From: Bacteroidales bacterium Bact_19
GTDB lineage: Bacteria > Bacteroidota > Bacteroidia > Bacteroidales > ML635J-15
Length of the DNA: 64,000 nt
NCBI GenBank assembly: GCA_001603595.1
Contig: LUZK01000034.1
Span: forward strand, 4,760 to 68,759
Direction: 5' to 3'
Positions within the stretch are counted from its first letter, which is position 1. Every line of letters begins with the position of its first letter. Both the position numbers and the translations under genes were made by a program. The notes under the pieces were generated by a model. That model made no database searches, had not been told where the DNA came from, and saw nothing but the letters and a program-made list of their open reading frames with translations. Of the stretch, positions 3,411 to 41,605 are shown one piece after another.

Positions 3411-3490
3411 AAAATTAATCCCAGGTGGTTTAGCCTAATTGAACCATTTGTAAATTCGGCTAAGCCTGAACTCTAAGAATGACGACTACG
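3411..3490 (+). repeat. GC-enriched intergenic module resembling the terminus of the IS-like element at 17167-17260 (solo end or MITE-like relic)
   Basis: By-eye alignment: ggtggtttagcc vs gggggtttgagcgg (17181-17194); gtaaattcggctaagcct vs gtaaagccgaagcct (17213-17228); gcctgaactctaagaatgacg vs the reverse complement of 30062-30084 (gcctcaactctcataaatgtcgg). Confidence 0.35.
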
Positions 3491-3599
3491 ATCTATCATA
3501 TTTACTCCCGTGGATTTAATTAAGTTTAAGTCTCTAGTCCAATAATACCGGGTTGATTGAAAAAAAAAGTTTCAAAACAAGTAACAGATCTGTTGCAAT

Positions 3600-4439
3600 T
3601 TAGCGATAAAAATTCATACTGTTCAACAAATTTGCCAAACCTTCATTTTCACTTGAAGGGATTATATTATATCTTTGTAGCAATTCATAAGGAGCATTTG
3701 CAACAACGTAAGCATTTTGGAATTTTACATATTCCAACATATCATAATCATAATAATCATTACCAACCGCAACAATATTTTCGAGCGGAATATCATGTTT
3801 TATTCTCAATAATTCAAGTCCATAAGCCTTTGAAACATGTTTAGGAAATATTTCAATCCATAAAGATTTATGGTCTATCGGGCTTGTTGCTTTTGTAACT
3901 TTAAAATTTCCAAAGTTTTCTTTTACGAATTGAAAATGATCTGTTCCTTCATTACAAATAATAACAAATTGCGAAGCAAGTTTAGGTATTGTCTTAGCCG
4001 GTGTGATTCCATTTGTTTTATAATAATTTATTCTGGCTTCAAAATCAGAATTATAATTACCGGAACTTGATTGATAAAAAATATGATTATAAGGCACAGG
4101 ATATTGTACCATAAAATCAAAATTATTCGATTTTAGAGTATTATATATTTCCAGAGTTTGGGATTTACTAAAATGATTTTCTGCAATTATATTTTTTGTT
4201 TTCCAATCCATCACTCCTACTCCTCCAGAAAAAATCAGATAATCAATAGGAAAATTCTTATCAACAATAGTTAAAAAAGAAAACAAAGATCTTCCGGTGG
4301 CAATTACTCTCAATATATTAGAGTTTTGTATATTTTGTAACCCATCAATTATGCTTTGTGGAATTACTCCTTGTTTTGTAGTAATCGTACCGTCGAAATC
4401 TGAAGCTAAAATGTGTGTTTTTTTATTGATATGCTTCAC
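3600..4439 (-). CDS. HAD-superfamily hydrolase (Cof/IIB-like)
   Basis: Motif I DFDGTIT, motif II VIATGRS, motif IV-like GNDYYDYDM. 279 aa. Confidence 0.8.
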   Translation of the reverse strand: MKHINKKTHILASDFDGTITTKQGVIPQSIIDGLQNIQNSNILRVIATGRSLFSFLTIVDKNFPIDYLIFSGGVGVMDWKTKNIIAENHFSKSQTLEIYNTLKSNNFDFMVQYPVPYNHIFYQSSSGNYNSDFEARINYYKTNGITPAKTIPKLASQFVIICNEGTDHFQFVKENFGNFKVTKATSPIDHKSLWIEIFPKHVSKAYGLELLRIKHDIPLENIVAVGNDYYDYDMLEYVKFQNAYVVANAPYELLQRYNIIPSSENEGLANLLNSMNFYR

Positions 4440-5106
4440 CTTTTTTTAATTTGGATAATCTGATTACAAGTTTTAACTGATCGTCGAAGTAATAATTTTC
4501 AAAATCTTTAAGAATCCCTTTGAATAAATTACCGAGTTTTCTATTTGTTACAACAATGATAAACCCTATATTTTCTTCATAAAACCACACAGGAACTAAA
4601 TATAGGTATGATTTTTTCTCTAAAGGTTTTATTGTTCCTAAAAATTTTGGATTTTCGGAATCGGCGGCTATTCTGAATAATTTTTCTTTATTTGGCAGGA
4701 AATCCTTATTTAAATCATCGCTTAAATATAAAGCATCGAATTCTCTAACTCCAATACCGGCATATTCAATATCAAAGAAAATATAATCAAAATGTTTGAT
4801 CAAAAATGAAATCACTTCTTTTGAAAACTTTTCAACATTGTCAATTTCTCCCAAAGCAATTTTGTTTCTGATAATATCAAAATTTCTGTTCAATCGTTCA
4901 GGTAAAAATACTATCAAATAAGAGTAAGCCCCCAACAGAACAAATATTACCAAAAACAAAATTACCACAATAATATCTACAGAGTATGGGACTTTCATAC
5001 TCGTAAATAATGTCCACACCGGAATAATTAAGGCCAAACATAAAGCTATATAAAAAATTAAAACAAGATTACGTTGAATACGGTTTATTTTTTTGAAGGT
5101 CTCCAT
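4423..5106 (-). CDS. Hypothetical membrane protein (two N-terminal TM helices plus a soluble C-terminal domain)
   Basis: Long ORF with hydrophobic segments LVLIFYIALCLALIIPVW and IIVVILFLVIFVLLGAYSYLIVF. Its 3' end overlaps the HAD gene start by 17 nt, suggesting an operon. Confidence 0.5.
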   Translation of the reverse strand: METFKKINRIQRNLVLIFYIALCLALIIPVWTLFTSMKVPYSVDIIVVILFLVIFVLLGAYSYLIVFLPERLNRNFDIIRNKIALGEIDNVEKFSKEVISFLIKHFDYIFFDIEYAGIGVREFDALYLSDDLNKDFLPNKEKLFRIAADSENPKFLGTIKPLEKKSYLYLVPVWFYEENIGFIIVVTNRKLGNLFKGILKDFENYYFDDQLKLVIRLSKLKKGEAYQ

Positions 5107-5169
5107 AGTTTTAATTTCTGTTACAAATTTAAAAATTAATTATTATGTTTTTAAAATATATTTCTCAAA

Positions 5170-6438
5170 CTAATATGCGTCAACAAAATCAGTTACAAAT
5201 CTAATCATATCTTCAAAAACAGCAAAAGTACAATTATCGTAAGTATCTTGTGGCTGGTGGTAAGTTGAATTATCTCCATCGGTATAGAAAAACAGAGCTT
5301 TAACACCTTTTTCATGAAAAGAAGCGTGATCGCTACCATAAGATAATCCAGTTGTATAAAACGTATCAAAATATTTATTTTTATTATTTAATTCTGTCAT
5401 TAGAACATTAATATCATTATGTAACTTGGCATTCATCACATAAACTCCTTTATCACCTGTTCCAACCATATCAAAATTTAGTAATACCTTTATTTTTGAA
5501 ATTTCAAAAGGTAAATTTTCTGCCATATATTGAGAACCTAATAAACCGGCCTCTTCAGCAGCAAAAAGAGCAAATACCATAGTATATTTTGGGGGACTCA
5601 TTTTTTTGTAAGATCTTGCCAAACTTAGGACCATTGCAACGCCGCTGGCATTATCATTAGCTCCAGGAAAAATTACATCTCCATACATTCCTAAATGGTC
5701 GTAATGTGCAGTTATCATTATTATACTGTCTGATTTTCCGGGAATATAACCTATTAAATTTGCAGTTGTATAATTTTCCACGAAACTATTCTGTATTTTA
5801 ATGTAAACAGAGTCACTCCCATAATTAATTTTATCCGAGCTTAACTGAACATGTACAAAATCTTTAATCTTTGTTCTAACCGTAAATTTTAGACGGGCAG
5901 ACTGTTCTATTATACCTGCCGCCTTAACATAATTTTTACTGAAGATTGTATTTGCAAATGCAAATAATTCAGGATTGTTTAAGCCTGTAGAATCAATACA
6001 AAGTATTCGGTCAGGATATTCTTCGGAGAGAAACTGCCTTAGTACCCATTGATTTGTTAATGTTCGTGCAGTTATCCATTCTATTTTGTATTTTTTATCT
6101 GTTTCAGGAGAACTTGGTATGACAACATAATCTTTAACAGGAACAAGTTCAATGGAATCAAACATAACTATTGTACTATTTATAAAACGATTAACACCAA
6201 TCGTAAAATTTTGAAAATAGCTGTCGCCAAATTTTTTAAGCCCTATTTTTTTAAACTCTTCTGCTAAGAACGAGGCTGCAATACTATCTCCTTTATTCAC
6301 ATACCCTCTTCCGTAAAATTCAGGTGATGAAATTTTTTGTACAATTTTTTTGGCATAATCAATATTTTGGGAATATCCAAAATAACACAAAAAAACTAAA
6401 CAACCGATAAAAAACAAATTACTTATTGCATTTTTCAT
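5170..6438 (-). CDS. M28 family metallopeptidase (aminopeptidase-like), secreted
   Basis: Signal peptide. Zn-ligand blocks TAHYDHLG, GANDNASGVA, AAEEAGLLGS, NFDMVG and SDHASF. Confidence 0.85.
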   Translation of the reverse strand: MKNAISNLFFIGCLVFLCYFGYSQNIDYAKKIVQKISSPEFYGRGYVNKGDSIAASFLAEEFKKIGLKKFGDSYFQNFTIGVNRFINSTIVMFDSIELVPVKDYVVIPSSPETDKKYKIEWITARTLTNQWVLRQFLSEEYPDRILCIDSTGLNNPELFAFANTIFSKNYVKAAGIIEQSARLKFTVRTKIKDFVHVQLSSDKINYGSDSVYIKIQNSFVENYTTANLIGYIPGKSDSIIMITAHYDHLGMYGDVIFPGANDNASGVAMVLSLARSYKKMSPPKYTMVFALFAAEEAGLLGSQYMAENLPFEISKIKVLLNFDMVGTGDKGVYVMNAKLHNDINVLMTELNNKNKYFDTFYTTGLSYGSDHASFHEKGVKALFFYTDGDNSTYHQPQDTYDNCTFAVFEDMIRFVTDFVDAY

Positions 6439-6591
6439 ATGTCAAAATTTAAAAAATTCGTATTTAAAATTTTAATTAAAACATTAATAGATTAAGAAAA
6501 GTTAAGTTTCACTAAATAATAGTTTAATGCTCCGAAGCAATTAATTATTTTTGGGATAAAATGATAATAAATTACCATAAAAATCAAAGTT

Positions 6592-7362: not shown

Positions 7363-7394
7363 TAAAAATAACTTATAAATAATTTACAAATATC

Positions 7395-7402
7395 TATATT
7401 TG
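7395..7402 (+). promoter_or_regulatory. Candidate -7 promoter box (TAnnTTTG)
   Basis: tatatttg lies 20 nt upstream of the GTG start at 7423. Confidence 0.4.
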
Positions 7403-7422
7403 CACAAAAGAAACGAAAAATC

Positions 7423-8415: not shown

Positions 8416-8416
8416 T

Positions 8417-9367: not shown

Positions 9368-9412
9368 CATAATTAAAATATGTAAGTTAACAAAATAAAT
9401 TGTAAGAATTGC

Positions 9413-9445
9413 CAATCAATACAGTTAGGTTTTTAGCCACTAATT
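9413..9445 (+). repeat. IR-like relic of the IS-like element family, upstream of the giant adhesin gene
   Basis: caatcaatacagttaggtttttagccactaatt compared with 30167-30196 (atgactaatacagggtttattggagc) and 3424-3440 (ggtggtttagcctaatt). Confidence 0.3.
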
Positions 9446-9631
9446 ACAGAAGAATACACTAATTTTTGAAAAATTTCTTAACCTTTATTGAACAATTTTT
9501 GATTTTTAAAATTTATTAGAATGAATGATTTATTCTAAATGTTGCATTTTTATAAAATAGTTATGAACAAAATGTTAAAAAAATATATACATTTTTTATA
9601 ATTTAATGTAAAAATGAAACAAAAAATTTAA

Positions 9632-9639
9632 TAAGTTTG
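9632..9639 (+). promoter_or_regulatory. Candidate -7 promoter box (TAnnTTTG) for the giant adhesin gene
   Basis: taagtttg lies about 58 nt upstream of the ATG at 9698. Confidence 0.35.
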
Positions 9640-9697
9640 CTTTTTAATAAAAAAATGTTGAAAAGTTTTCTTAATTAATAACTTAAATTTAGTGCTT

Positions 9698-12600
9698 ATG
9701 AGAAAAATTATTTATTTTATTGTTGCATCATTAATTTCACTTATGATGCAGGCACAAACAGTGCTAGTAAATCCAAATGCAGAAGGAGGATTTGAATTAG
9801 GTACTGATTTTGCTGCCAATGGATGGACCGTTGATAACGGGGCACAAACAAATCAGTGGTTTGTGGGGACAGTTCCGCTTAGTCCTAATAATAATGCAGC
9901 TTATATCTCCAATGATTTCGGAACCTCATGGAATTATACAAATACATCAACTTCTGTCGTGCACTTTTATAGGGATATTACATTCCCGGCAGGAGAAACC
10001 GATATCCAATTAAGTTTTTGGATAAAAGGTATTGGCGAAAGTAGTTTCGACAGATTAAGGGTTTACCTTGTTCCAACAACAACTACTCCAGTTGCAGGGA
10101 CAGAACTTTCATCAGGACAAGTTGGTCAGGCTAATTACAGTTTACAAAACGAATGGATTAAAGTAGGTATTCAAATACCTGCATCTGCAGCTGGAACTAC
10201 CCAGCGTCTCGTTTTTTCCTGGAGGAATGATAATTCTTTAGGTACAAATCTTCCTATTGCAATCGACAATATTTCTCTCATTTCGCAAGTCCCCTACAAT
10301 CTATCCGGAACATATACCATTGATAATTCTTTACCTACAGGTGGCTTAAATTTCAATGGTTTTGTTGATGCAATTTTAACTTTAAATTCTGCAACTATTA
10401 CAGGTCCTGTAGATTTTATAGTAACATCTGGTCAGCAATTTACAGAAATATTACCTGTTATAACTGCTACAGGTACAGCTGCTAATACAATTACTTTTGC
10501 AAAATCAGGGGTTGCATATCCAAAAATTCTATCTTCCGGATTTAATACAACAACTGATGCAATTATAGCATTACGTGGAGGAGATTACTTTACATTCAAT
10601 GGTCTTGAGCTTGGGTTATTAGTGCCAATTCACAATCAATTAGAGTACGGTATTTACGTTTTTAATGAAAATGCTACAAATGGAGCACAAAACAATATCT
10701 TTAATGATATAATTATTTCATTAAACAGAGCTTATACATCTTCAAGAGCAGTTTATCAAAATGTTGCTACTACACCAAGTGATGTAACCGGAGCAAACTC
10801 CTACAACACATATAATGCTATAAATGTTTCTAATTCTTATAACGGAATTGTTATCACCGGAAATGCAACATATCCGGATTTAGGGTTAACAGTTCAAAAT
10901 TGTATTATAGGTTCCGATAACCCAAATGATATTGGTTTTGGAACATCAGCAATAAGTGGATTAAGAATTACTTCAGGACGTGACGTTGTAGTTGCAAACA
11001 ACATTGTCAGAAATCTAACTATTACAGGTGGGGCTAATCTATTTGGTTTGTTCATGGAAAACATTCAAGGAACAAGCGAAATTTATAATAACAAAGTATA
11101 TAATTTAACCTCAACAAGTACTTCTACTTCAGCCGTTTTAACCGGTTTAAGAGCGGATGTAACTTCAACAAATACAGCAAATGTTTATAATAATGTTGTT
11201 TACGGATTTAATCATGCAATTGCTTCTCCAAGTGCGACAAATGTTGCTAGAGGCATGGTTGCTAACCTTTCGGGAGCAGGAACCGTTAATTTAGCATACA
11301 ACAGTGTAAACATTGCTTTAAATGCCAATGCCTCAAATGATGCTTTAAGGATAGGAGGAGGTACTGTTAATCTTGTTAATAATGTTTTAGTCAATTCTTC
11401 TGCATCTGGTTCTACCTCTAATAGATATTGCATATATAGAAGCGGAGGTACAATTATTTCAGACTATAATAATATTTATATACCATCAGGAACAAACAAT
11501 TATATAGGCTATTATACTTCTAACCAAACAACTATGACTGACTGGCAAGCTGCTGTATCCGGAGATGCAAATTCCATTTCAGTAGATCCGCTATTTACGG
11601 GAACTCCGGACCTAATGCCGTCAAATCCTGCAATGAACAATTTGGGAACAACTGTTCCAGGTATAACAACTGATATTTTAGGAGTTGCCAGAAATGCTAC
11701 CAATCCTGATATGGGAGCTTATGAATTCAATCCTCCTACATGTGTTATGCCAACAGATTTAACTGTTAGTGGAATAACAACAAACTCAGCTATTTTAGGT
11801 TGGACCAGCAGTGCTTCTGAATGGAACATCGAAGTTGGATTACCAGGATTTACCCCAGGCAATAGTGAATATGTTGTTTCAATATACGGATCAGTAGCTA
11901 ATCCAACACCAGCAACAGGATTAACACATTCTACTCAATATCAGTTCTATGTTCAATCAGTTTGTGGTATTGAAACTTCAAGTTGGGCGGGGCCAGTAAG
12001 TTTTTCTACACTTTGCGGAACTATAACTAGTTTCCCATATACCGAAAGCTTTGATGGTACCACGTTTGCACCAACATGCTGGACAAATCAAAAAACTGCT
12101 GGTTCAGGAACAGGATTATGGGATAGACAAACATCAGGTTCTAACCCAACGTGTACTCCTCATAGTGGAGCAGGTATGGCAAGATTTAATTGCTTTAATT
12201 ACTCATCCGGAACAGCTGGAATTCTTGTAACTCCGGAAATAAGTGCTCCAGCTAATCATATTGTTGAATTTTGGATGTACAGAGATAATGGCTACTCTTC
12301 AGATTTAGATAGAGTAAATGTTTATACAAATGCAACACCGGACTTAACAGGAGCAACATTATTAGGTACAATTAACAGATCAATAACTCAAACTCCGGTA
12401 GAGGCTTCCAACGGATGGTATAAATATAAATACGATTTGCCGGCAGGAAATCAATATATTATTTTTGAAGGTATCAGTGCTTATGGTAATAATATTTTTA
12501 TTGATGACATTACAATAAAAGAAAAACCTACTTCCACTGTAACATGGTGTAATTTACAATGGCCTGGTAATTTTACAATGACAACTAACGAAAATGTTGA

Positions 12601-15600
12601 AATTTATGCACAAGTTTACGAAGCAGGTATCACAGATGCTATCGGACAAGGAGCAGGAATTGAAGCATGGATTGGTTATTCAACAGCAAATACTAATCCA
12701 TCAACATGGACTAATTGGATTCCGGCTATTTATAATGTTGATGTTGGAAATAACGATGAATATAAAATTACTTTAGGATCATTAGCTCCAGGTACTTATT
12801 ACTATGCTTCAAGATTTTCTTTAAACGAAGGTCCTTACTCATATGGTGGATTTAATGGAGGATTCTGGGATGGTACAAACAATGTTTCAGGAGTTCTTAC
12901 AGTAAATGCAATACTTGGAAGTCATTGTGATAATCCATACATTGTTCAAATCCCGGCTGATCTTACATATGCACAGTCTCACACTACTTGTGGAATGAGT
13001 AATTATTATGATTTATCTTCAACAAGTTATGATAACGGAGAAGATGCTATTTACCGCCTTGATGTTACGCAGAATACTGTTGTAAAGATTACTATGACTC
13101 CCGTAGAAACTTATTCAGGATTATTTTTATTTGATGCTTGTCCTAATAGTGGTACACTTTTACAATCAGTAACTAATTCAACAAACACTCCGAGAATTAT
13201 CACGCAGGCTCTAACAGCAGGAACTTATTACATAATGGTTGATATATGGCCTACCCCAAACTGTACTGATTATTCTATTCAAATCGAAGTTGTTTGCCCT
13301 GCTCCAACAAATATCACTGCAACAAATATAACTTCCTCACAAGCTGATCTAAGCTGGACTCCAAGTGGATTTGAAACTTCATGGAATGTTAAAGTTTCTT
13401 CTACCTCAATTGATCCAACAGCAGAAACTGGTGATATTTACGACGGAATAGTTAATTCACTACCTTTACAATTAACCGGATTAACTGAAAGCACTACTTA
13501 CTATGTATATGTACAAGCCGCTTGCGTTTCAACATGGACTAATGGAATATTTACTACTACAGCCTCATGCCCATTACCTACAGATTTAACAACAACTAAT
13601 ATTTTACATAATCAGGCTGATTTAGATTGGAATGCATATTCTGGTACAAACTGGAACTTAAAGGTTTCTACTACTGCAATTGATCCTGAAACTGAATCAG
13701 GAAACATTTTCGATGGTGCTATTAATACAAAACCATATACAATTACAGGCTTAAATGCCCAAATAACTTACTACTGGTATGTACAAACAATATGTGGTAC
13801 TGAAACTTCAAATTGGTCAGCACAAGCTTCATTTACAACTTCATGTGCTCCGATAAGTAGCTTCCCGTTTATCGAAAGCTTTGATGGCACCACTTTCGCT
13901 CCAACATGCTGGACCAACGAAAAAACTGCTGGTACAGGAACAGGTTTATGGGATAGACAAACAAACGGGTCTAACCCAACATGTACTCCTCATAGTGGAG
14001 CAGGTATGGCAAGATTTAATTGTTATTCTTACTCATCCGGAACAGCTGGAATTCTTGTAACTCCGGAAATAAGTGCTCCAGCTAATCATATTGTTGAATT
14101 TTGGATGTACAGAGATAATGGCTACTCTTCATATTTAGATAGAGTAAATGTTTATACAAATGCAACACCGGACTTAACAGGAGCAACATTATTAGGTACA
14201 ATTAACAGATCAATTACTCAAACTCCGGTAGTGGCTTCCAACGGATGGTATAAATATAAATACGATTTGCCGGCAGGAAATCAATATATTATTTTTGAAG
14301 GTATCAGTGCTTGGGGTAATAATATTTTTATTGATGACGTGACTGTAAGACAATTATCTTCAGAAAAAGACATCCTAAGTTTTGTGCTTGCAGAACAAAC
14401 AGGTCCTGCTATTATTGACAATATAAATCACACTGTTGACATTGAAGTAGGAATTGGAACGGATGTTACTAATTTAACACCTACAATTACAGTATCTCCA
14501 AATGCAGTAATAAATCCTGCTTCAGGTATTCCTCAGGACTTCACAAATCCTGTAACATATACTGTAACAGCAGAAGATTTATCAACTCAAGATTGGATTG
14601 TAACTGTAACAGTAGCAACGGCATTAAGTAGTTCTAAAGATATTCTCAGTTTTAGCTTCCCTGAACAAACCGGTCCTGCTACAATTGGAACAAATACTGT
14701 TGATATTGAAGTTAACTGGATGGCTAATCTAGCTGCGTTAACACCTACAATTACTGTTTCTCCTTTTGCTTCAATTTCCCCAGCTTCAGGAGTTACTCTT
14801 GATTTCACCAATCCAGTAGTTTATACTGTTACAGCTCAAGATCTTTCTACAAAAGATTACACTGTTACTGTTACAAAAGCTCTTCCAACATTAGGAAGTC
14901 ATTGTGATAATCCATACATTGTTCAAATCCCGGCTGATCTTACATATGCGCAGTCTCACACTACTTGTGGAATGAGTAATTATTATGATTTATCTTCAAC
15001 AAGTTATGATAACGGAGAAGATGCTATTTACCGCCTTGATGTTACGCAGAATACTGTTGTAAAGATTACTATGACTCCCGTAGAAACTTGGTCAGGATTA
15101 TTTTTATTTGATGCTTGTCCGGATACCGGTACTTTGATACAATCTGTAACAAATTCCGAAGCAACCCCAAGAATTATTATTGAAGCATTGACAGTAGGAA
15201 CATATTATGTAATGGTTGACACTTGGCCTTCACCAAATTGTACTGATTATTCTATTCAAATTGAAGTTGTTTGTCCAGCTCCTACAGGTATCACTGCAAC
15301 AAATATAACTACCTCGCAAGCAGATTTAAGCTGGACAGCAGGTGGATTTGAAACTTCATGGAATGTTAAAGTTTCTTCTACCGCAATTGATCCAACAGCA
15401 GAAACTGGTGATATTTACGACGGAATAGTTAATTCACTACCTTTACAATTAACCGGATTAACTGAAAGCACTACTTACTATGTATATGTACAAGCCGCTT
15501 GCGCTTCAACATGGACTAATGGAACATTTACTACTGCTGATGCTTGTCCTGTTCCAACAAACTTAACAGCTACAACAGGCATTAACGATGCAAACCTTTC

Positions 15601-17080
15601 ATGGAGTTCATTCACCGGCGATTCATGGAACTTGAAAGTTTCTTCTACTCCAATTGATCCATCAACAGAAACAGCTGATATAGTTGATATCAACCTTTCA
15701 AGCACAAGTTACAATGTTTCAGGTTTGAATTCAAATACTACCTATTATTGGTATGTTCAAACTGTTTGTACTGTTCCTGCAGAATCTAACTGGTCAGGTC
15801 AGGCTACTTTCACAACGCAATGTGGTATTTTCAACTTACCATTTGCAGAAGACTTCGAAAGTGGCATGCTAAACTGCTGGACAATACTTAATGTTGATGG
15901 AGGACTTCCGGTATGGACTTTAAATACAAGTCAAAATCATACTCCCGGTGGTAACACATCAATTTATCATAACTACAACGGTGCCAACTCAGATGATGGA
16001 TGGTTAATTACACCTGCAATTCAATTACCTACTAATCAAAATATTAACCTATCTTTCTGGTCATATAATTCTTTCCCAACATGGTATGGTGAAAACAGTG
16101 TTTGGGTTTCTACTACCGGAACAGATCCTTCTGATTTTACAAAAATCTGGCAACCATCAAGTGTAACAGCTTCATGGGAACAAACAAATCTTGATCTTAG
16201 TTCTTACGCAGGTGAAATTGTTTATGTTGCGTTTAGATATGCCGGATATGATGCTCATGCCTGGTATCTTGATGATATAAACATCACTGCAACTCCTATT
16301 ATTGTTAATCAGATTAATCAAATTGACATTAACAATGATGTTGTAGATGTTCAAGTATGTCTTGGTACTTCAGAAGTTGAAGCTATATCTCTTCTTGCTA
16401 ATCAAATCACTATCACCGATACTGAAGATAACCAATATATTGTTGATTTAACATGGACAGTTGCGTCTTATGATGCTAATACAGCAGGTGACTACACTGC
16501 TACAGGAACATTCGAATTACCTGCAGGTGTAAATCAAACTGATCCTCCAACAGCTCTCGAAGTAACTGCAACTATTACAGTTAATGAACTTCCGGTTGTT
16601 ACTTGTCCCGAAGACTTTATACTAACTACAAATTCTATTGTAACTCTCACAGGAGAAAATCCAACAGGTGGCGTTTATTCCGGCACAGGTGTAAGTGGAT
16701 ACATTTTCAATCCTGATGGTCTTGACAATGGTGATTATACAATTACTTATACTTATACCGATCCTGTTACAGGTTGTGTAAATAGTTGTAACTTTACGAT
16801 CACTCTTGATATTGATGTTAACGTAAGTGCTCAGACTATCAGTGCTATCAGCATCTATCCTAACCCGAATAACGGTAAATTCTCTGTAGTATTTAACAAC
16901 TTCGAAGGTAAAGTTACTTACGGTATCTATGATGCTAAAGGTAGTGTTATTATTACTGAAGAAGTTTATACTTCAGGAAATACAGTTAGAGATTTCGATA
17001 TCAAACTCGTTCCCGGTGTTTACTACATTAAGATGACTAACGATAGCAATACCTTTGTCGAAAAGATTGTTATTCAATAA
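9698..17080 (+). CDS. Giant secreted multi-domain adhesin-like protein with a T9SS C-terminal sorting domain (about 2460 aa)
   Basis: Signal peptide MRKIIYFIVASLISLMMQAQ. The ATG at 9698 is preferred over the GTG at 9692. Contains three cleaved-adhesin / choice-of-anchor-J-like modules (FxESFDG...CWT...W), FN3-like modules (TxxSAxLxW...YxxYVQ) and two PPC-like modules. The C-terminal ISIYPNPNNGKFSV...YYIKM is typical of a T9SS CTD. Confidence 0.85.
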   Translation: MRKIIYFIVASLISLMMQAQTVLVNPNAEGGFELGTDFAANGWTVDNGAQTNQWFVGTVPLSPNNNAAYISNDFGTSWNYTNTSTSVVHFYRDITFPAGETDIQLSFWIKGIGESSFDRLRVYLVPTTTTPVAGTELSSGQVGQANYSLQNEWIKVGIQIPASAAGTTQRLVFSWRNDNSLGTNLPIAIDNISLISQVPYNLSGTYTIDNSLPTGGLNFNGFVDAILTLNSATITGPVDFIVTSGQQFTEILPVITATGTAANTITFAKSGVAYPKILSSGFNTTTDAIIALRGGDYFTFNGLELGLLVPIHNQLEYGIYVFNENATNGAQNNIFNDIIISLNRAYTSSRAVYQNVATTPSDVTGANSYNTYNAINVSNSYNGIVITGNATYPDLGLTVQNCIIGSDNPNDIGFGTSAISGLRITSGRDVVVANNIVRNLTITGGANLFGLFMENIQGTSEIYNNKVYNLTSTSTSTSAVLTGLRADVTSTNTANVYNNVVYGFNHAIASPSATNVARGMVANLSGAGTVNLAYNSVNIALNANASNDALRIGGGTVNLVNNVLVNSSASGSTSNRYCIYRSGGTIISDYNNIYIPSGTNNYIGYYTSNQTTMTDWQAAVSGDANSISVDPLFTGTPDLMPSNPAMNNLGTTVPGITTDILGVARNATNPDMGAYEFNPPTCVMPTDLTVSGITTNSAILGWTSSASEWNIEVGLPGFTPGNSEYVVSIYGSVANPTPATGLTHSTQYQFYVQSVCGIETSSWAGPVSFSTLCGTITSFPYTESFDGTTFAPTCWTNQKTAGSGTGLWDRQTSGSNPTCTPHSGAGMARFNCFNYSSGTAGILVTPEISAPANHIVEFWMYRDNGYSSDLDRVNVYTNATPDLTGATLLGTINRSITQTPVEASNGWYKYKYDLPAGNQYIIFEGISAYGNNIFIDDITIKEKPTSTVTWCNLQWPGNFTMTTNENVEIYAQVYEAGITDAIGQGAGIEAWIGYSTANTNPSTWTNWIPAIYNVDVGNNDEYKITLGSLAPGTYYYASRFSLNEGPYSYGGFNGGFWDGTNNVSGVLTVNAILGSHCDNPYIVQIPADLTYAQSHTTCGMSNYYDLSSTSYDNGEDAIYRLDVTQNTVVKITMTPVETYSGLFLFDACPNSGTLLQSVTNSTNTPRIITQALTAGTYYIMVDIWPTPNCTDYSIQIEVVCPAPTNITATNITSSQADLSWTPSGFETSWNVKVSSTSIDPTAETGDIYDGIVNSLPLQLTGLTESTTYYVYVQAACVSTWTNGIFTTTASCPLPTDLTTTNILHNQADLDWNAYSGTNWNLKVSTTAIDPETESGNIFDGAINTKPYTITGLNAQITYYWYVQTICGTETSNWSAQASFTTSCAPISSFPFIESFDGTTFAPTCWTNEKTAGTGTGLWDRQTNGSNPTCTPHSGAGMARFNCYSYSSGTAGILVTPEISAPANHIVEFWMYRDNGYSSYLDRVNVYTNATPDLTGATLLGTINRSITQTPVVASNGWYKYKYDLPAGNQYIIFEGISAWGNNIFIDDVTVRQLSSEKDILSFVLAEQTGPAIIDNINHTVDIEVGIGTDVTNLTPTITVSPNAVINPASGIPQDFTNPVTYTVTAEDLSTQDWIVTVTVATALSSSKDILSFSFPEQTGPATIGTNTVDIEVNWMANLAALTPTITVSPFASISPASGVTLDFTNPVVYTVTAQDLSTKDYTVTVTKALPTLGSHCDNPYIVQIPADLTYAQSHTTCGMSNYYDLSSTSYDNGEDAIYRLDVTQNTVVKITMTPVETWSGLFLFDACPDTGTLIQSVTNSEATPRIIIEALTVGTYYVMVDTWPSPNCTDYSIQIEVVCPAPTGITATNITTSQADLSWTAGGFETSWNVKVSSTAIDPTAETGDIYDGIVNSLPLQLTGLTESTTYYVYVQAACASTWTNGTFTTADACPVPTNLTATTGINDANLSWSSFTGDSWNLKVSSTPIDPSTETADIVDINLSSTSYNVSGLNSNTTYYWYVQTVCTVPAESNWSGQATFTTQCGIFNLPFAEDFESGMLNCWTILNVDGGLPVWTLNTSQNHTPGGNTSIYHNYNGANSDDGWLITPAIQLPTNQNINLSFWSYNSFPTWYGENSVWVSTTGTDPSDFTKIWQPSSVTASWEQTNLDLSSYAGEIVYVAFRYAGYDAHAWYLDDINITATPIIVNQINQIDINNDVVDVQVCLGTSEVEAISLLANQITITDTEDNQYIVDLTWTVASYDANTAGDYTATGTFELPAGVNQTDPPTALEVTATITVNELPVVTCPEDFILTTNSIVTLTGENPTGGVYSGTGVSGYIFNPDGLDNGDYTITYTYTDPVTGCVNSCNFTITLDIDVNVSAQTISAISIYPNPNNGKFSVVFNNFEGKVTYGIYDAKGSVIITEEVYTSGNTVRDFDIKLVPGVYYIKMTNDSNTFVEKIVIQ
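12014..12520 (+). repeat. Intragenic duplication unit 1, copy a (adhesin-module coding)
   Basis: Paralogous to 13844-14350 (offset 1830 nt). 12161-12507 is about 97% identical to 13991-14337 (about 9 differences counted by eye). Confidence 0.85.
12917..13560 (+). repeat. Intragenic duplication unit 2, copy a (PPC-like plus FN3-like coding)
   Basis: Paralogous to 14894-15537 (offset 1977 nt). The first ~225 nt differ at 3 positions and the last ~190 nt at about 4. The central ~200 nt is clearly more diverged. Confidence 0.85.
13844..14350 (+). repeat. Intragenic duplication unit 1, copy b
   Basis: See copy a. The 5' third is more diverged (about 85%). Confidence 0.85.
14894..15537 (+). repeat. 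Intragenic duplication unit 2, copy b
   Basis: See copy a. Confidence 0.85.
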
Positions 17081-17100
17081 TCTAATATAAACTATTTAAA

Positions 17101-17130
17101 AAGCCCGGCTCTAAGTCGGGCTTTTTTTTT
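17101..17130 (+). terminator. Rho-independent terminator after the giant adhesin gene
   Basis: 7-bp stem aagcccg/cgggctt with a 9-nt loop, followed by a T-run of 9. Confidence 0.8.
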
Positions 17131-17166
17131 ACACAAATTCCACATTAAAAATATTAATTCTGACTG

Positions 17167-17188
17167 ATGACCTAAATGGAGGGGGTTT
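17167..17188 (+). repeat. Terminal inverted repeat (3' end relative to the ORF)
   Basis: atgacctaaatggagggggttt compared with the reverse complement of 18699-18724, atgaactaatgcttagaaggggtttt (about 70% identity with gaps). Confidence 0.5.
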
Positions 17189-17331
17189 GAGCGGCGTATT
17201 TTCCGGCAATTGAGTAAAGCCGAAGCCTCTTGATGTTTGATCAAAGCAAAAAAACTGTCTTTATTAGAGTAAGAATCACTTTAGCTAAAAACAAAACCAT
17301 AGATTCTTGCATTCACTATCGGCTATGTTAT

Positions 17332-18390
17332 TTAATAAATTTTGGAAATTCCGATTAAAACTCCGTAATCCAGATGATGAAATTTATCTTCGCTTTTCCA
17401 TAAACGTTTAATAGGATCAAAAGGCTCATAAATACCTGAATAGCTTTTTATGAAATTTACATACATTCTCTCCACTTGAATGAATTTAAACCAGACAGCA
17501 CGATTTTTAAAAAATATTCGATAATCAAAAAATTTGAGATTAAAAATAAATCCGGCTAAAAAGTTTGAATAAACCTGTAAGTATTTTGTTGCCACTCCTC
17601 TCATTCTGGTGCTTATAGTTCTTTTAAAGTCTGTGTCTAAACTGCTGTTATAAAGCTTTTGTAAATTTTCAAGTTCAACCGTTTTTTTGTTTTGAACATC
17701 TAATAATTTATATTTTTTTGATTTAAGATAAGTTGAAAGTAACGAATTTTCAGATACTATTACCTTCGATTTTTTGTTAATTAACTTTTTAAGTACTATG
17801 TTGAGATCGTGTTTTTCAAGTTCTCCCAGCTTGGATAAGCGAGTTTGCATAAAGTTGCTGTTTTCAGCTACCAAAACATTTGCAGGCAATAAACTTGCTT
17901 TGACAGTAAATTTAGGAGAAATATTCTTCCGTCCTTTCTGACCGAATTTAAATTGTATCTGTCTTAATAATACTTCAGAATCTAAAGTTTTAAAACCTGA
18001 TGAATACAACATTAAAAACTTATGTCGCCAGTCAAATGCGGTTTGATTTGCGATGTCAAGACGTTTTTTAATTTTAGAAATTGGGATTATACCTTCGGTG
18101 GTGATAATTTTAAAATATTCTAAATATTTGTGTTTTTTATGAATATAATAAAATATCGAACCTGTGGTTGGAATAAACGTCTTTCCACAATCCTTACATC
18201 TGTATCTATCCAAATGTTTATATCTTCCATGCTTAATGATATTCTTCGATTGGCAGTAGATACATTTCGAAACTTTAATTTTAGATGTTAAGCTATCAAA
18301 TTGGTTAATGTCATTTAGTAAATGTTTAAATTCATTTTCACTTAATTGAGAAATGGCATCTTTTATTTCCTCTAATGACAATTTTTTCAT
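17332..18390 (-). CDS. Transposase-like protein with an N-terminal Zn-ribbon and HTH (352 aa); possibly a divergent or degenerate ISXO2/IS1595-like DDE domain
   Basis: CIYCQS...YRCKDCGKTF ribbon (IS1 InsA / IS1595 type). HTH-like IANQTAFDWRHKF. C-terminal RMRGVATKYLQVYSNFL resembles the HGVSxKHLxxYLxEF tail of IS1595 enzymes. Acidic catalytic residues were not convincingly located by eye. Confidence 0.6.
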   Translation of the reverse strand: MKKLSLEEIKDAISQLSENEFKHLLNDINQFDSLTSKIKVSKCIYCQSKNIIKHGRYKHLDRYRCKDCGKTFIPTTGSIFYYIHKKHKYLEYFKIITTEGIIPISKIKKRLDIANQTAFDWRHKFLMLYSSGFKTLDSEVLLRQIQFKFGQKGRKNISPKFTVKASLLPANVLVAENSNFMQTRLSKLGELEKHDLNIVLKKLINKKSKVIVSENSLLSTYLKSKKYKLLDVQNKKTVELENLQKLYNSSLDTDFKRTISTRMRGVATKYLQVYSNFLAGFIFNLKFFDYRIFFKNRAVWFKFIQVERMYVNFIKSYSGIYEPFDPIKRLWKSEDKFHHLDYGVLIGISKIY

Positions 18391-18698
18391 AGTGCAAAAA
18401 TAAATTATTTATAAACACAAAAATATAGAATAAATTATTTTACTGAAAATGAATCTATATTCATAAATAGTGTTCTGTTTTTCTTGATTGTAACTAATTC
18501 ATTAGGTTTACAAAAATTTATGAATTAAATTTAATCAATCTTTAAAAAATTTAATTTTATTAAAGTATAATATTTTTAAATCTAAGAGTTTAACACCGAT
18601 TTATTATTCAATTTTACAATTTGTAAATATAACATTTGCTTAAAGACTTGTATTCCCCGAGGTTGAGCAAATCTGAAATTACATTAATCATTTTATAT

Positions 18699-18724
18699 AA
18701 AACCCCTTCTAAGCATTAGTTCAT
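18699..18724 (-). repeat. Terminal inverted repeat (5' end relative to the ORF)
   Basis: The reverse complement reads atgaactaatgcttagaaggggtttt. Its first 14 nt are identical to the reverse complement of 30144-30157 in the second copy. Confidence 0.5.
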
Positions 18725-18810
18725 TACATTCCTATTCAACACATAATATTAGTTCTTTGATGGTTTTTTGATGGTATAATCACAAGACGATATAATAATT
18801 AAACAAAAAA

Positions 18811-19386
18811 TTATTGCTTAATACTAAAAGGTCCTTTGAGTGAAACTCTCCCAATCATTTCCGAATCAGGATTATCAACATTTAAATCAAAATTACCACA
18901 TATATTTTTTTCATCAATATAATCTATTGTAACACCTCCTTGCTTTGGCATACCAACAGACCAATTAAACCAAACAACTCCGTATATAGTGCTTATTGTT
19001 ACCCTACTCCATAGACCATTCTCATATTCGTGATACAAATACTCCCCTTTTTGAATTTTCATACCCTTACGTGCATATAATTCTACATTTATCTGGACAT
19101 CGCTTTCTTCCAATTCTTTTTTCTCTTCAGGAGAATAATTAAACAAATGAAGAGTAACTGTTGAGTCATTTTCAAATTCATATTCGAAATATTTCACATT
19201 AAAATCTGAAATATCCAGCTTCAACGTATCTTTCATTCCATAAAAATAATCACTGATGTGCAAGGAAAACTTGTTCTGAAAATCGCAAATACTTTGTTTC
19301 TCTTCTTCTTTAGATTTCTGTTTGCAGGAAAAAACCATCACAAATGAAATTAAAATTAAACTCGTTAAAAAAAGTTTTTGTTTCAT
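18811..19386 (-). CDS. Hypothetical lipoprotein (191 aa)
   Basis: Signal peptide with lipobox-like VMVFSC. No recognisable family. Confidence 0.5.
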   Translation of the reverse strand: MKQKLFLTSLILISFVMVFSCKQKSKEEEKQSICDFQNKFSLHISDYFYGMKDTLKLDISDFNVKYFEYEFENDSTVTLHLFNYSPEEKKELEESDVQINVELYARKGMKIQKGEYLYHEYENGLWSRVTISTIYGVVWFNWSVGMPKQGGVTIDYIDEKNICGNFDLNVDNPDSEMIGRVSLKGPFSIKQ

Positions 19387-29399: not shown

Positions 29400-29588
29400 T
29401 ATTATTATTTTTATTTCAAAGATATAAAATAAAAAAACTAATATTACAAGAAAAGTTAATAACTAATGATATTAAATTCTGTATTTGCTCACTAAAACAA
29501 AACAATTAATTTTAAATTTCACATAACATCTAAATGGATTGTAAACAATTGTTTAAAATTTTTGATTTGTATTGATATATTTATTTTG

Positions 29589-29596
29589 TAAATTTG
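29589..29596 (+). promoter_or_regulatory. Candidate -7 promoter box (TAnnTTTG) inside the decayed element
   Basis: taaatttg lies 37 nt upstream of the ATG at 29633. It overlaps the TTG start given in the ORF track, which argues against that start. Confidence 0.35.
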
Positions 29597-29632
29597 TTAC
29601 AAATTATCTCAAATAAAAAAAACAATAAAAGA

Positions 29633-30048
29633 ATGAATCAAAAAAGTAAAAAAGTAAATCGCAATCCTTTTCCTGAAGAAATCCTAAATTTACCGGTAAC
29701 TAAGTGCCCGTATTGCGAAAGTGAACATTTTGTTAAGTATGGGAAATACATTAACGTACCAAGATATAGATGTAAAAGTTGCAAGCGTACGTTTCTTCCT
29801 ACAAGTGGAAGCAGTCTTCATTACATAAATAAAAAAGAAAAGTTTTTGAAATTATTTGAATTGATTAAGGTAGGCGAAGTTTTAACAGTAAAAAGAATAT
29901 CTGAAAAATTTGAAATAAGCATTTAAACTGCATTTGATTGGAGGAATAAGATTTTATCGGCACTAAATATAGATAAGAAAGATTACAAATCTAAAAAAAC
30001 TTTAAATATAGTTAACTCTATTCCAAATTCAGCAATAGAGAATGTTTA
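29633..30048 (+). pseudogene. Truncated transposase-like gene (Zn-ribbon/HTH part only) with an in-frame TAA at 29924-29926
   Basis: CPYCESEHFVKYGKYINVPRYRCKSCKRTF matches 17332-18390. Homology continues across the stop (SI*TAFDWRNKIL vs ANQTAFDWRHKFL), with TAA where the intact copy has a Gln codon. It then collapses after about 40 codons. Confidence 0.6.
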
Positions 30049-30147
30049 ATTTGCCCAAAGCCGACATTTATGAGAGTTGAGGCTCTCGAAACGCCCTTAT
30101 GATTGATCCTCTCGATGGTTGAGCGTAAGCTAACCCACACACGAAGC

Positions 30148-30175
30148 ATTAGTTCATAAACCCCCAATGACTAAT
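30148..30175. repeat. Head-to-head terminus palindrome (attagttcat / atgactaat)
   Basis: attagt(t)cat at 30148-30157 pairs with atgactaat at 30167-30175 across the 9-nt spacer aaaccccca. Confidence 0.6.
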
Positions 30176-30266
30176 ACAGGGTTTATTGGAGCTTTGCTGT
30201 TAGGTTTTTTGTACGTTAATTATTTTGAAGTATTTACTATTTAAACTTCTACCTTCAAAATCCCTC

Positions 30267-34766: not shown

Positions 34767-35015
34767 AATACACTAATTTTAGTTAAACAATTTTAAAGTA
34801 CAAATATAAACATTTTATTATTACAATTTTCTTTTACTAAATATTTTCTGGATATTTTATTAACAATTTTTTGTTAATAACTAATTTGTAATTTAAAACA
34901 AAAATATAACATACAAAAAATATTAAATGTTAGAAACAAATATAAGTAATATTATATTTATCCATATCGAGCATCGAGAATAAAATCCGGATTTGTGTTA
35001 CATTCCGAATCCTAA

Positions 35016-37703: not shown

Positions 37704-37832
37704 ATTAGCAGATATTTTAGCATTTAGATTAACTTTTTTTTAAGAAAGAAAAACAATATAAAATTAGTATTTCTGTTAAAATTGCAGAGTTTTTGTAAGA
37801 AAAAAAACATTGTTCGGATAAAAAAACATTTT

Positions 37833-39674: not shown

Positions 39675-39685
39675 AGATTTGAGAT

Positions 39686-40453
39686 ATGAAAAAAGTAATA
39701 ATCATAATATTAATTTTAATTTTCAGCGAAAGTATTATATCGTTCGGCAAACCCAATCAAAGAATTAAAAACTTACAGGATTCTGCTTTGAACTTCTATA
39801 TGCAAAACGATTTCAAAAATTCTGTAAGAGTTTATCTCGAAATTTTAAAATCGGGATATTATTCTTCTGAGTTATATTACAATCTTGGCAACGCTTATTT
39901 CAAGTCCGGTGATATTGCCTCTGCAATTTATTATTACGAAAAAGCAAAACTTCACAATCCCTCCGACCCAGATATAAATCATAACCTGAAAATCGCATAC
40001 TCACAAATAAAAAACAAAGTAGAACCTTTGCCCGAATTTTTCTTTATCTCATGGTATAAACAGACCCTTAACTTGTTTTCTGCAAATACCTGGGCTGTTT
40101 TGAGTATTATGTTTTTCGTTTTTTTGTTAACAGCTATAATAATTTATCTCTTTGGTAAAACCTTAACTCAAAAAAAGATAGGATTTTATACAGGAATTAT
40201 TTTTATTTTTTTCTTCTCATTATCTCTATTATTCAGTATAAAACAGACGAATAACATAACAAAAAATAAATTTGCAATAATATTCGATCCTGTTATGGTA
40301 AAATCAAGTCCTCAAGAAGAAGGGACCAATATGTTTGAAATTAATGAAGGTTTAAAAGTTGAAATATTGGATTCATTAAACAACTGGTATAACATTAGGC
40401 TTGCAGACGGGAAACAGGGTTGGATTGTAAAAGAAAGTGTAAAAAAATTATAG
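39686..40453 (+). CDS. BatE-like TPR plus SH3b domain membrane protein
   Basis: TPR repeats (YYNLGNAYFKSGDIASAIYYYEKA), two TM helices, and a C-terminal SH3-like WYNIRLADGKQGWIVKESV. Confidence 0.6.
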   Translation: MKKVIIIILILIFSESIISFGKPNQRIKNLQDSALNFYMQNDFKNSVRVYLEILKSGYYSSELYYNLGNAYFKSGDIASAIYYYEKAKLHNPSDPDINHNLKIAYSQIKNKVEPLPEFFFISWYKQTLNLFSANTWAVLSIMFFVFLLTAIIIYLFGKTLTQKKIGFYTGIIFIFFFSLSLLFSIKQTNNITKNKFAIIFDPVMVKSSPQEEGTNMFEINEGLKVEILDSLNNWYNIRLADGKQGWIVKESVKKL

Positions 40454-40490
40454 AATTTCAGAATTATAACAAACATATGGCCAAATAATT

Positions 40491-40498
40491 TATTTTTG
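40491..40498 (+). promoter_or_regulatory. Candidate -7 promoter box (TAnnTTTG)
   Basis: tatttttg lies 25 nt upstream of the ATG at 40524. Confidence 0.35.
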
Positions 40499-40523
40499 AG
40501 CTAATAAAAATTGAAAATTTAAA

Positions 40524-40946
40524 ATGAAAAAATTCGCATTGCTAAGTTTAATCATAAGTATTACCTTGATTTCCTGCGATATACTTAATAGAAATGTTTG
40601 CAAAAATTACTTAAGCGACGACAAATACATACGTTGCTATGCAGAGGCAAAAAGCTCTAATCCACAGCTTGCTGCTGAAAAGTCTTTATTTTTAGCAAAA
40701 CAAAATGCTTCAAAACTTATTGATGATTATATTCTCGAAAAATACAATCACAAATTATTTCTCGAAGATCCTGATTACGAGACAAAAATTACCATAGCTC
40801 GCAAAACTATTTTGAGCGATATAAATATTGTTTGCAACCGCGACAAATACCGTAAAGGTCTTCATTATAACTATGTAGCAATTGAAATTTCAAAAAATGA
40901 GATTGAGCATGAAGTTGAGAAACGACTAAAAGAAAAAATCAGATAA
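40524..40946 (+). CDS. Hypothetical lipoprotein (140 aa)
   Basis: Lipobox-like ITLISC. No recognisable family. The stop overlaps the next start. Confidence 0.5.
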   Translation: MKKFALLSLIISITLISCDILNRNVCKNYLSDDKYIRCYAEAKSSNPQLAAEKSLFLAKQNASKLIDDYILEKYNHKLFLEDPDYETKITIARKTILSDINIVCNRDKYRKGLHYNYVAIEISKNEIEHEVEKRLKEKIR

Positions 40947-41461
40947 TGGACATTGTTCTTATTATACTTGGTTCTATTCTAATAATTGCTGGAATTATCG
41001 GGTGTATTTTACCTGTAATTCCAGGACCGCCATTAAGCTTTGCTGGATTACTTTTACTTCACTTTACGAGTATTGTAAACTTTTCGACCTTCACATTAAT
41101 ATTCACCGCATCAGCAGCACTTATTGCAACAATTCTTGATTATGTAGTTCCTGCCTGGGGAACAAAAAAAGCCGGTGGTACAAAATGGGGAATTCGTGGT
41201 AGCGGAATAGGAGTAATAATTGGATTATTCTTTGCTCCTTTAGGAATTTTTATTTTCCCTTTTTTAGGAGCACTCATTGGTGAACTTTTTTATCATTATC
41301 AAATTAGAAAAAATGTTAAAGACCCCGATAAATTTTCAAAATCTCTTGTTGCATCATTAGGTTCATTTTTGGGATTGATATTTGGGATTGTTCTTAAACT
41401 TGCAGTAAGTTGTTTCATTGCATTTTTATTTATTAAAGAGTTAATAATAGCTTTATTCTAA
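40946..41461 (+). CDS. DUF456-like small membrane protein
   Basis: Four TM helices. The GIIGCILPVIPGPPLSF N-terminus is typical of the family. Confidence 0.6.
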   Translation: MDIVLIILGSILIIAGIIGCILPVIPGPPLSFAGLLLLHFTSIVNFSTFTLIFTASAALIATILDYVVPAWGTKKAGGTKWGIRGSGIGVIIGLFFAPLGIFIFPFLGALIGELFYHYQIRKNVKDPDKFSKSLVASLGSFLGLIFGIVLKLAVSCFIAFLFIKELIIALF

Positions 41462-41535
41462 ATTAATATCGAAATAAAAGAATATTCCATAAGGTTTGAT
41501 AATATTTTTATACCGGTAATTTCAGCTTGTGTATA

Positions 41536-41605
41536 CCTAATCATTTAGGCTTCGCCAAACACAGTACTAATAGAAAAGTTGCAGGCACCGAAGTACTATC
41601 CAAAT
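41536..41605 (+). repeat. GC-enriched intergenic island with weak resemblance to the 3' module of the IS-like element
   Basis: catttaggcttcgccaaacac compared with 30066-30096 (catttatgagagttgaggctctcgaaacgcc). caccgaagtactatcc compared with cacgaagcattagttcat (30140-30157). Many gaps, so this is tentative. Confidence 0.2.

Follow-up and report, generated by a model that had tools for sequence, protein, structure and literature searches.

The tnp1 unit and its boundaries

Two genes derived from transposases lie in the window, i.e. the complete 64-kb stretch of DNA analyzed here. The first, tnp1 (17332-18390, minus strand), is an IS1595-derived transposase-like ORF of 352 aa, which possesses a Zn ribbon and a helix-turn-helix (HTH) and whose catalytic acidic residues are replaced. 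Its N-terminus matches the NCBIfam model IS1_IS1595_Zn (NF050000) with an E-value of 2e-11, so that the Zn-ribbon/HTH region characteristic of IS1595 is present; four Cys residues and a TAFDWRHK motif are invariant across the alignment of tnp1 homologs. Against the model transpos_IS1595 (NF033547) the protein scores 37 bits, under the cutoff of 75, and no Pfam DDE domain, PF12762 included, is predicted. We found 66 homologs, the distant ones of which carry PF12762. Counting back from QKGRK, the D-D at positions eight and seven is R-Q in an ungapped stretch of the alignment; S-E-N stands at the second D position, and the catalytic triad D, D, E/N/H is absent. The unit is probably no longer catalytic. 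In the window, tnp1 is present once. Its position is fixed in every sample of the species, with 12 contigs carrying it there, and part of the strains have it split by a 4.37-kb island.

The extent of the unit is given by its relatives. DNA homology to relatives in other genomes (blastn and nhmmer against L001-L004 and L028-L031) stops sharply at 17331/17334 and 18442/18449; in blastn comparisons, the 3' homology ends at 17331-17345 (versus L002, L003 and L004) and the 5' homology at 18441-18449. Homologs in seven other contexts share solely 17331-18449, i.e. a promoter block and the ORF. L002 and L003 are 92-93% identical to the unit, L001, L004, L029 and L030 are more distant, and the relatives at 92% nucleotide identity are found in a different genomic context. 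For L028 (79% amino acid identity), non-coding homology with the window reaches at least as far as 18666 and 17279.

The real 5' boundary of the unit is formed by a conserved block (18400-18449, minus strand), which is invariant in five homologous loci and includes a Bacteroides-type promoter (TTTG ... TATTTTTG; the -7 consensus of this promoter type is TAnnTTTG, PMC4747536). In alignment, the block corresponds to the inner portion of the terminal inverted repeat (IRL/IRR) of L051, a canonical IS1595-family relative whose 52-nt repeats are 87% complementary and lie tight against its ORF. At the 3' boundary (17321-17360, plus strand), a weak IRR-like sequence overlaps the ORF end; it shares TAAATTTTGG and GAT.AAAAC with the IRR of L051 and nothing more, and the internal IRL-IRR match within the window's own sequence is weak. 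No direct repeat that could represent an 8-bp target-site duplication flanks 17321/17331 and 18442/18449, and the window contains no solo copies of the IRL-type block. Because the terminal repeat of L051 aligns with the 5' block of tnp1, the real IS-type ends abut the ORF, and sites A and B of the motif described below lie outside, 140-275 nt beyond the conserved unit. Hence, 17331-18449 is a 1.1-kb IS1595-derived unit in which a promoter that arose from the left inverted repeat precedes the 352-aa ORF, with family-conserved boundaries that abut the ORF. The first-pass annotation had matched GC-enriched intergenic modules to the ends of an IS-like element; given these boundaries, and a motif unlike the IS1595-type inverted repeat, we abandon this assignment.

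The tnp2 locus

The second gene, tnp2 (29633-30049, plus strand), consists of 138 codons and encodes the N-terminal Zn-ribbon/HTH domain of IS1/IS1595 alone; an in-frame TAA is located at 29924-29926. It is a pseudogene across all strains of this species. In the sister species, the ortholog P0067 is intact (138 aa, 76% identity) and is found in the same RmuC-X-707aa synteny; the gene is intact and syntenic in L023-L026, where the flanks possess no motif tip. Between the genes, the orthologous DNA of the sister species has diverged beyond alignment. The first-pass annotation counted only one intact ORF among its modules, a misreading of this second locus, whose 138-aa gene is intact in the sister species. 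We conclude that tnp2 is an old gene of the IS1595/IS1 type that was reduced to the DNA-binding N-terminus and that is knocked out here by one nonsense codon.

A four-site motif in the flanks of tnp1 and tnp2

A family of modules dispersed over the window had been proposed, with a composite motif at seven places. The strings quoted for them are all present at their coordinates, and the islands are the GC-richest intergenic patches of the window; the set of places that exceeds chance is smaller. Within the 64 kb, ATGA-N0-1-CTAA-N3-14-GGKTT matches exactly four times (A 17167+, B 18724-, C 30157-, D 30167+), with 0.19 matches expected, and the GGGTT version (ATGA-N0-1-CTAA-N3-14-GGGTT) fits all four sites. 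The motif spans ~25 nt. Site A (17167-17194, plus strand; ATGACCTAAATGGAGGGGGTTTGAGC) is located 137 nt past the stop codon of tnp1, and site B (18700-18724, minus strand; ATGAACTAATGCTTAGAAGGGGTTT) 310-334 nt upstream of its ATG, so that both point inward around the gene. Site C (30132-30157, minus strand; ATGAACTAATGCTTCGTGTGTGGGTT), ~85-108 nt past the stop of the 138-aa frame, and site D (30167-30210, plus strand; ATGACTAATACAGGGTTT) lie tip to tip behind tnp2. The membership of a fifth place, site H (29459-29492, plus strand), with a degenerate tip ATAACTAATG plus TTTGCTCA, is borderline: its comparison with B gives p ~0.03, that of the whole flanks p = 0.18.

One could suspect a coincidence, i.e. 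a motif picked by eye from AT-rich, low-complexity intergenic DNA. In an enumeration of 13-base composite motifs with at least five G/C across all intergenic regions, this was the sole non-terminator motif with four sites, a level reached in 0 of 200 shuffles under one motif layout and in 0 of 271 under any of 16 layouts. The window has five ATGA-N0-1-CTAA sites, four of which are followed by GGKTT, and A-D together lie within ~1.1 kb of flank of the two IS-derived genes. On the other hand, related patterns are not significant after correction (the two-block motif ACTAAT...TTTGCT, p = 0.14; GGTT-N0-3-AGC with six intergenic matches, p = 0.07, look-elsewhere corrected), and repeated 14-mers are common in the window (k-mers with at least four G/C: 57 seen, ~31 expected). 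Moreover, ATGAACTAATGCTT, the 14-mer that B and C share, is not enriched when up to three mismatches are allowed (12 seen, 16 expected). Weighing both sides, we consider coincidence unlikely. The four-site motif is statistically real, and within the window it occurs only in the non-coding flanks of tnp1 and tnp2, with no match in the other 19 intergenic regions.

The remaining proposed copies do not beat the shuffled controls as the four sites do: 3421-3440, 9413-9440 and 41549-41560 score within shuffle expectation, and the same applies to the internal blocks claimed at 17213-17230, 30075-30090 and 3451-3470. They represent either chance matches or ordinary hairpins in convergent intergenic gaps; the position of two islands between convergent genes (3386-3599 and 41462-41636) was confirmed, and the former includes a plain, unstranded hairpin outside the motif family (3427-3466; GGTTTAGCC ... 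GGCTAAGCC). In addition, nhmmer searches of the window and of 13 related loci detected no further motif copy, so that the supposed dispersed family shrinks to two loci. The motif is absent at every relatives' locus examined, with L028 and L023 lacking the tip at orthologous positions, and a scan of a metagenome that lacks this species yielded 19 matches, all unrelated and at chance level.

It had also been suggested that the modules encode a small structured RNA, and a riboregulator family would fit their GC enrichment relative to the surrounding intergenic DNA. Yet the folding energies of the islands are no better than those of shuffles on either strand (z-scores between -1.3 and +1.7), RNAalifold predicts 0 and -1.8 kcal/mol and no pair with support, and the islands match no Rfam family at gathering thresholds or even at E <= 5. 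The chance that such an RNA exists is very slight. Among strains, the modules display no variation on which covariation could show.

Behind the 138-aa frame, 120 nt past its stop and on the same strand, a 14-bp hairpin (30171-30203) precedes UUUUUU; site D supplies the 5' arm of this hairpin, which looks like an intrinsic terminator of the gene. The stability of the hairpin is no better than that of shuffles (z -0.75); at the same place, the sister species possesses a different hairpin (-17.3 kcal/mol, z -2.2). A classical bidirectional intrinsic terminator (17098-17130; -18.3 kcal/mol, z -6.0) separates an adhesin gene from tnp1.

Sites B and C are similar to each other. As noted in the first pass, their tips are identical over 14 nt (ATGAACTAATGCTT; 18711-18724 and 30144-30157, both on the minus strand); for a shared 14-mer with at least four G/C in all intergenic DNA, one case is seen and 0.05 are expected (p ~0.03). 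On both sides of this 14-mer, the segment around B (18636-18805, plus strand) exhibits weak collinear similarity to 30051-30247, with p = 0.03 left of the tip and p = 0.008-0.03 right of it. An nhmmer comparison of the two segments results in E = 0.91, and the pair ranks fourth among 506 real intergenic pairs; both values would also suit coincidence.

A nested insertion could account for part of these observations: a small non-autonomous, MITE-like family would have A/B and H/C as its terminal inverted repeats and D as a solo end, and the two IS1595-type units would have landed inside it or next to it, be it as a safe haven or by target preference. The inward-facing pairs around both genes, the identical tips of B and C and their weak similarity on the inner side favor this reading, which would also account for the missing motif among relatives of the inner unit. 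However, there are no target-site duplications around A/B (flanks TCTGACTG / TACATTCC) or H/C (flanks AAAAGTTA / AAACCCCC), in pairwise comparison site A aligns significantly with none of B, C and H, and the similarity of B and C runs on outside the tips. A mobile family is further opposed by the lack of other copies in the 64 kb and related loci and by the missing tip in L028 and L023. We consider the nested insertion unlikely, and the MITE-like or solo-end spread envisaged in the first pass is not borne out.

The sites might alternatively be putative half-sites for the adjacent Zn-ribbon/HTH proteins. The InsA protein of IS1 binds its own inverted repeats, and by analogy C and D, which form an imperfect palindrome around a 9-bp spacer (CATTAGTTCAT-N9-ATGACTAAT), would constitute an operator; the exclusive position of the sites beside genes for DNA-binding domains of the IS1/IS1595 type would be in agreement with this. 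Conversely, every strain of the species carries tnp2 as a pseudogene, and some have a disrupted tnp1 as well. The sister species, whose gene is intact, lacks the sites, and A and B are isolated half-sites. An operator function seems improbable to us. In another reading, the sites could be ends or recognition sites of a small, lineage-specific non-autonomous element or putative protein-binding module, specifically coupled to catalytically dead IS1595-derived genes. Either those genes would home into the module, or their DNA-binding domains would still act on it. We regard this as quite unlikely; if true, it would reveal a domesticated transposase with cognate sites in uncultured Bacteroidales.

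Our preferred explanation, to which we attach about an even chance, is that the DNA flanking the two IS1595-derived genes, with sites A-D in it, is old and decaying. The motif copies would be decaying leftovers of older flank DNA common to both loci, not the ends of a moving unit, and D would now double as the terminator stem of the 138-aa gene. The interruption of tnp1 by the 4.37-kb island and the nonsense codon in tnp2 fit decay rather than function. Four observations speak against leftovers. The inward-facing geometry around both genes resembles terminal inverted repeats. Taking out 17167-18724 or 29459-30157 would give spacers of typical length (~170 nt). The 14-mer of B and C is identical, although orthologous intergenic sequence can no longer be aligned with the sister species, so that neutral decay alone is hard to invoke. 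Finally, the non-coding homology of L028, in which the inner neighbor of site B (18633-18666) is conserved, could reflect a larger unit and not orthology.

Since the motif is neither the end of the mobile unit nor, across the window and 13 related loci, a dispersed family, the finding is mostly ordinary, and its importance lies mainly in annotation. An apparent 1.56-kb "IS" becomes an IS1595-derived unit of 1.1 kb, probably without catalytic activity, a neighboring "wreck" becomes a conserved gene for a predicted DNA-binding protein of 138 aa, and the leftover four-site motif is a modest curiosity. If the motif turned out to be coupled to IS1595-derived genes genome-wide, a transposase-derived protein may retain cognate sites or, alternatively, an IS may target a specific small repeat.

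Comparison with known systems

With members of the IS1595 family such as ISApl4 (Siguier, Gagnevin & Chandler 2009, cited in PMC12561309), tnp1 has in common the N-terminal Zn ribbon and HTH, the C-terminal RGV(A/S)TKYL, the size of its unit (~1.1 kb) and a 5' block homologous to the inverted repeat of L051. It differs in the absent PF12762 match, the change of the catalytic D-D to R-Q, and the lack of a convincing IRL/IRR pair and of 8-bp direct repeats. ISApl4 is present in 39 copies with perfect 14-bp inverted repeats and 8-bp direct repeats (PMC12561309), whereas the window contains one copy of tnp1, at a fixed site. Like the InsA-type protein of IS1, tnp2 comprises the Zn-ribbon and helix-turn-helix region of IS1/IS1595 alone, and it occurs at one locus in two species; unlike InsA, it lies outside any recognizable IS and carries a nonsense codon in this species.

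Compared with MITEs or solo IS terminal repeats, the motif likewise occurs as short, inverted intergenic copies facing inward around segments of 0.7 kb and 1.6 kb, but it is restricted to two loci, matches no IS1595-type inverted repeat, lacks target-site duplications, and has weakly similar arms whose similarity continues past the supposed ends. The canonical shape of intrinsic terminators, which had been proposed for the modules in general, is found in D (30171-30203 plus U6) and at 17098-17130 but not in A, B and C. REP/BIME intergenic repeats are targeted by IS elements such as IS1397 and ISKpn1. Unlike these, the motif has no palindromic unit and is confined to two loci within the window; the islands resemble them as short, GC-enriched intergenic DNA beside IS-derived genes, in some cases between convergent genes.

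Sites of the flanking motif

Two IS1595-derived genes, tnp1 (17332-18390, minus strand) and tnp2 (29633-30049, plus strand), form a real pair in this stretch, and each is accompanied by a small motif. The first-pass annotation had proposed a dispersed family of IS termini; this reading is unsupported. Within the 64 kb, the flanking motif is restricted to the loci of these two genes, and it is most likely shared flanking DNA of old origin, now in decay.

The motif, ATGA-N0-1-CTAA-N3-14-GGKTT, occurs at site A (17167, plus strand), site B (18724, minus), site C (30157, minus) and site D (30167, plus). When eight intergenic islands were compared pairwise by Smith-Waterman alignment against dinucleotide shuffles, B-C was the only pair that stood out (z 4.7). 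Every pair involving 3400-3500, 9395-9460 or 41520-41615, all previously counted as family members, scored at chance level. The window has about 40 repeats of comparable kind, of which the 14-mer common to B and C is one; this 14-mer is unusual only among intergenic DNA (p about 0.03). The nhmmer check that had been proposed scores B to C at E = 0.91 and gives no other match, and B-C ranks fourth when set among 506 real intergenic pairs. When the window was searched with the element by blastn at word size 7, the output was mostly AT-rich noise, its only significant part being the coding similarity between tnp1 and tnp2.

Nevertheless, we take the four sites A-D to be a non-random set, since GGKTT comes 3-14 nt after four of the five ATGA-N0-1-CTAA occurrences in the window (the composite, seen four times, has an expectation of 0.19), since an unbiased enumeration of such composites in all intergenic DNA returned only this motif and palindromic terminators, and since no shuffle of the four flanks reached four sites (0 of 200 in one layout, 0 of 271 in 16 layouts). 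Membership of the degenerate site H (29459) is borderline, and GGTT-N0-3-AGC is no more than suggestive (p = 0.07). The modules show no variation among 12 strain-level contigs. A metagenome scan for ATGAACTAATGCTT-N3-8-GGGKT gave 19 matches, all unrelated (different GC content, mostly coding, no tnp-like gene); the scan is silent on genome-wide copies, because the collection lacks the window's species.

No motif was found in the relatives' loci or in the orthologous flanks of the sister species, no target duplications flank the motif sites, and ancient paralogy of B and C was not detected in the sister species. Nor does the motif act as a boundary of similarity, as B and C remain similar to the left (p = 0.03) and to the right (p = 0.008-0.03) of the 14-mer. 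A long terminal inverted repeat was rejected (flank of A compared with that of B or C, p = 0.59 and 0.94), and so was the idea that the neighbouring genes have homologous 3' coding ends into which the B and C segments extend (BLASTP E > 5; p = 0.06-0.19). A small-ORF reading (ATG-AxC-TAA; a 27-aa hydrophobic ORF at D) was considered, but the ORF is not conserved among motif copies. An empty site, sought via homologues of the neighbouring 191-aa protein, yielded only a 51% match on a 991-nt contig. The outer ends of A (17167) and B (18724) each lie exactly 87 nt from a neighbour's stop codon (17080 and 18811); these neighbours are convergent, and removal of 17167-18724 would leave a 172-nt spacer.

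As an alternative, the modules had been suggested to be a structured RNA or a terminator. The RNA part is not borne out, Rfam in permissive mode giving only terminator-like sub-threshold matches. The terminator part fits D: downstream of the 138-aa gene, D makes up the 5' arm of a hairpin with a 14-bp stem and a U6 tract after it, and at this position the sister species has a hairpin of unrelated sequence. D is thus best read as a putative terminator of that gene. The D hairpin region (30165-30202) has 38 nt of direct similarity (71%) to 63198-63235 near the window end, and a hydrophobic ORF of 27 codons (MTNTGFIGALLLGFLYVNYFEVFTI) starts at D.

Extent of the IS-type unit

The boundaries of the tnp1 unit were sought by blastn of 16900-19000 against homologous loci of other genomes. 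Homology to L002 and L003 (92-93% nucleotide identity to the window) is sharply bounded and spans 17334/17345-18442; that to L004 covers 17331-18441, and that to L001 extends to 18449. The nhmmer results concur and add four loci (L028-L031). The genes flanking the homologous ORFs differ between genomes and often lie right next to the ORF, with gaps of 92 nt upstream and 24 nt downstream for L004 and of 6 nt downstream for L030. A 5' block of about 50 nt, TTTATTCYATATTTTTGTGTTTA...TAYWTTTG, is common to all homologous loci compared and contains the Bacteroides -7 consensus, TAnnTTTG (PMC4747536). In a canonical relative, L051 (protein P0023, PF12762), inverted repeats of 52 nt, 87% complementary, lie tight against the ORF; the inner part of this repeat can be aligned to the 5' block of tnp1, and the tnp1 3' end keeps TAAATTTTGG and GAT.AAAAC. 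Judged from these alignments, the IS-type ends would lie at about 17321/17331 and 18449, so that the termini formerly placed at 17167 and 18724 fall 140-275 nt outside them. A search of the window for solo copies of the true repeat block found none. A second, inverted copy of the block resembling the left inverted repeat, with two mismatches, lies within the tnp1 ORF (18116-18136, plus strand), 275 nt from the first, and overlaps the codons of a conserved HKKHKYLEY motif.

Non-coding similarity beyond the ORF is seen in L028, a contig of 1496 nt that codes for a protein 79% identical to that of tnp1; the similarity covers 17279-17322 downstream (z 5.1) and 18633-18666 upstream (z 4.0). This may reflect a larger mobile unit, the contig being short. 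We read it rather as probable orthology in a sister species, because the closer relatives L002 and L003 lack those flanks, because the small-unit boundary recurs in six independent contexts, and because L028 lacks the outer end of the motif, though it retains TTACAAGGGTTTCAGAGC.

The two genes and their setting

The window, from an uncultured Bacteroidales bacterium, is AT-rich (24-38% GC), contains no tRNA genes, and has no Rfam match at gathering thresholds; the locus recurs in JGI, ENA, NCBI and Logan assemblies at 98.4-100% identity. A sub-threshold match to group-II-D1D4-4 at 59420-59554 (plus strand; 32 bits where the gathering score is 49, E 0.0023), inside the ORF 58504-61650, is probably due to chance. 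An adhesin of 2462 aa has a sorting domain for type-IX secretion, and within 11948-15700 its gene has internal duplications about 2 kb apart, with reported stretches of 60-300 nt that are 83-98% identical.

The region 29594-30049 codes for the N-terminal third of a distant tnp1 paralogue (42% amino acid identity). A single TTA to TAA change at 29924-29926 truncates this Zn-ribbon/HTH gene and is fixed in all sampled strains of the species. The view of the gene as a recent wreck does not stand, as the sister species keeps an intact 138-aa orthologue, P0067 (76% identity), with the RmuC-X-707aa synteny preserved.

The tnp1 ORF has been interrupted in three assemblies, where a 4.37-kb island (L013:8024-12390) near ~17365, within the 3' end, splits it into two ORFs. 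An IS1595-like paralogue of 336 aa lies on this island, together with an N6/N4 methyltransferase, a HindIII-like endonuclease and small ORFs; the junctions of the island have only ACG in common.

The 352-aa tnp1 protein has an N-terminal domain of the Zn-binding IS1/IS1595 type (E 2e-11). Its match to the IS1595 transposase model is below threshold, and it has no match to Pfam DDE domains. A search of genome contigs with this protein yielded only one distant locus, L001. Together with P0001-P0020, it belongs to a clade of IS1595-like proteins of 325-355 aa that have substituted catalytic positions and no PF12762 match; in many samples each member occupies a single fixed site in its genome and follows a conserved promoter derived from the inverted repeat, and the members are possibly domesticated transposases. 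The 66 database homologues of tnp1 grade into canonical IS1595 transposases bearing PF12762. In an ungapped stretch of the protein alignment, the D-D preceding QKGRK in the canonical proteins is replaced by R-Q in the tnp1 protein, where the position of the second aspartate is likewise altered; for these reasons, the tnp1 protein is probably non-catalytic.
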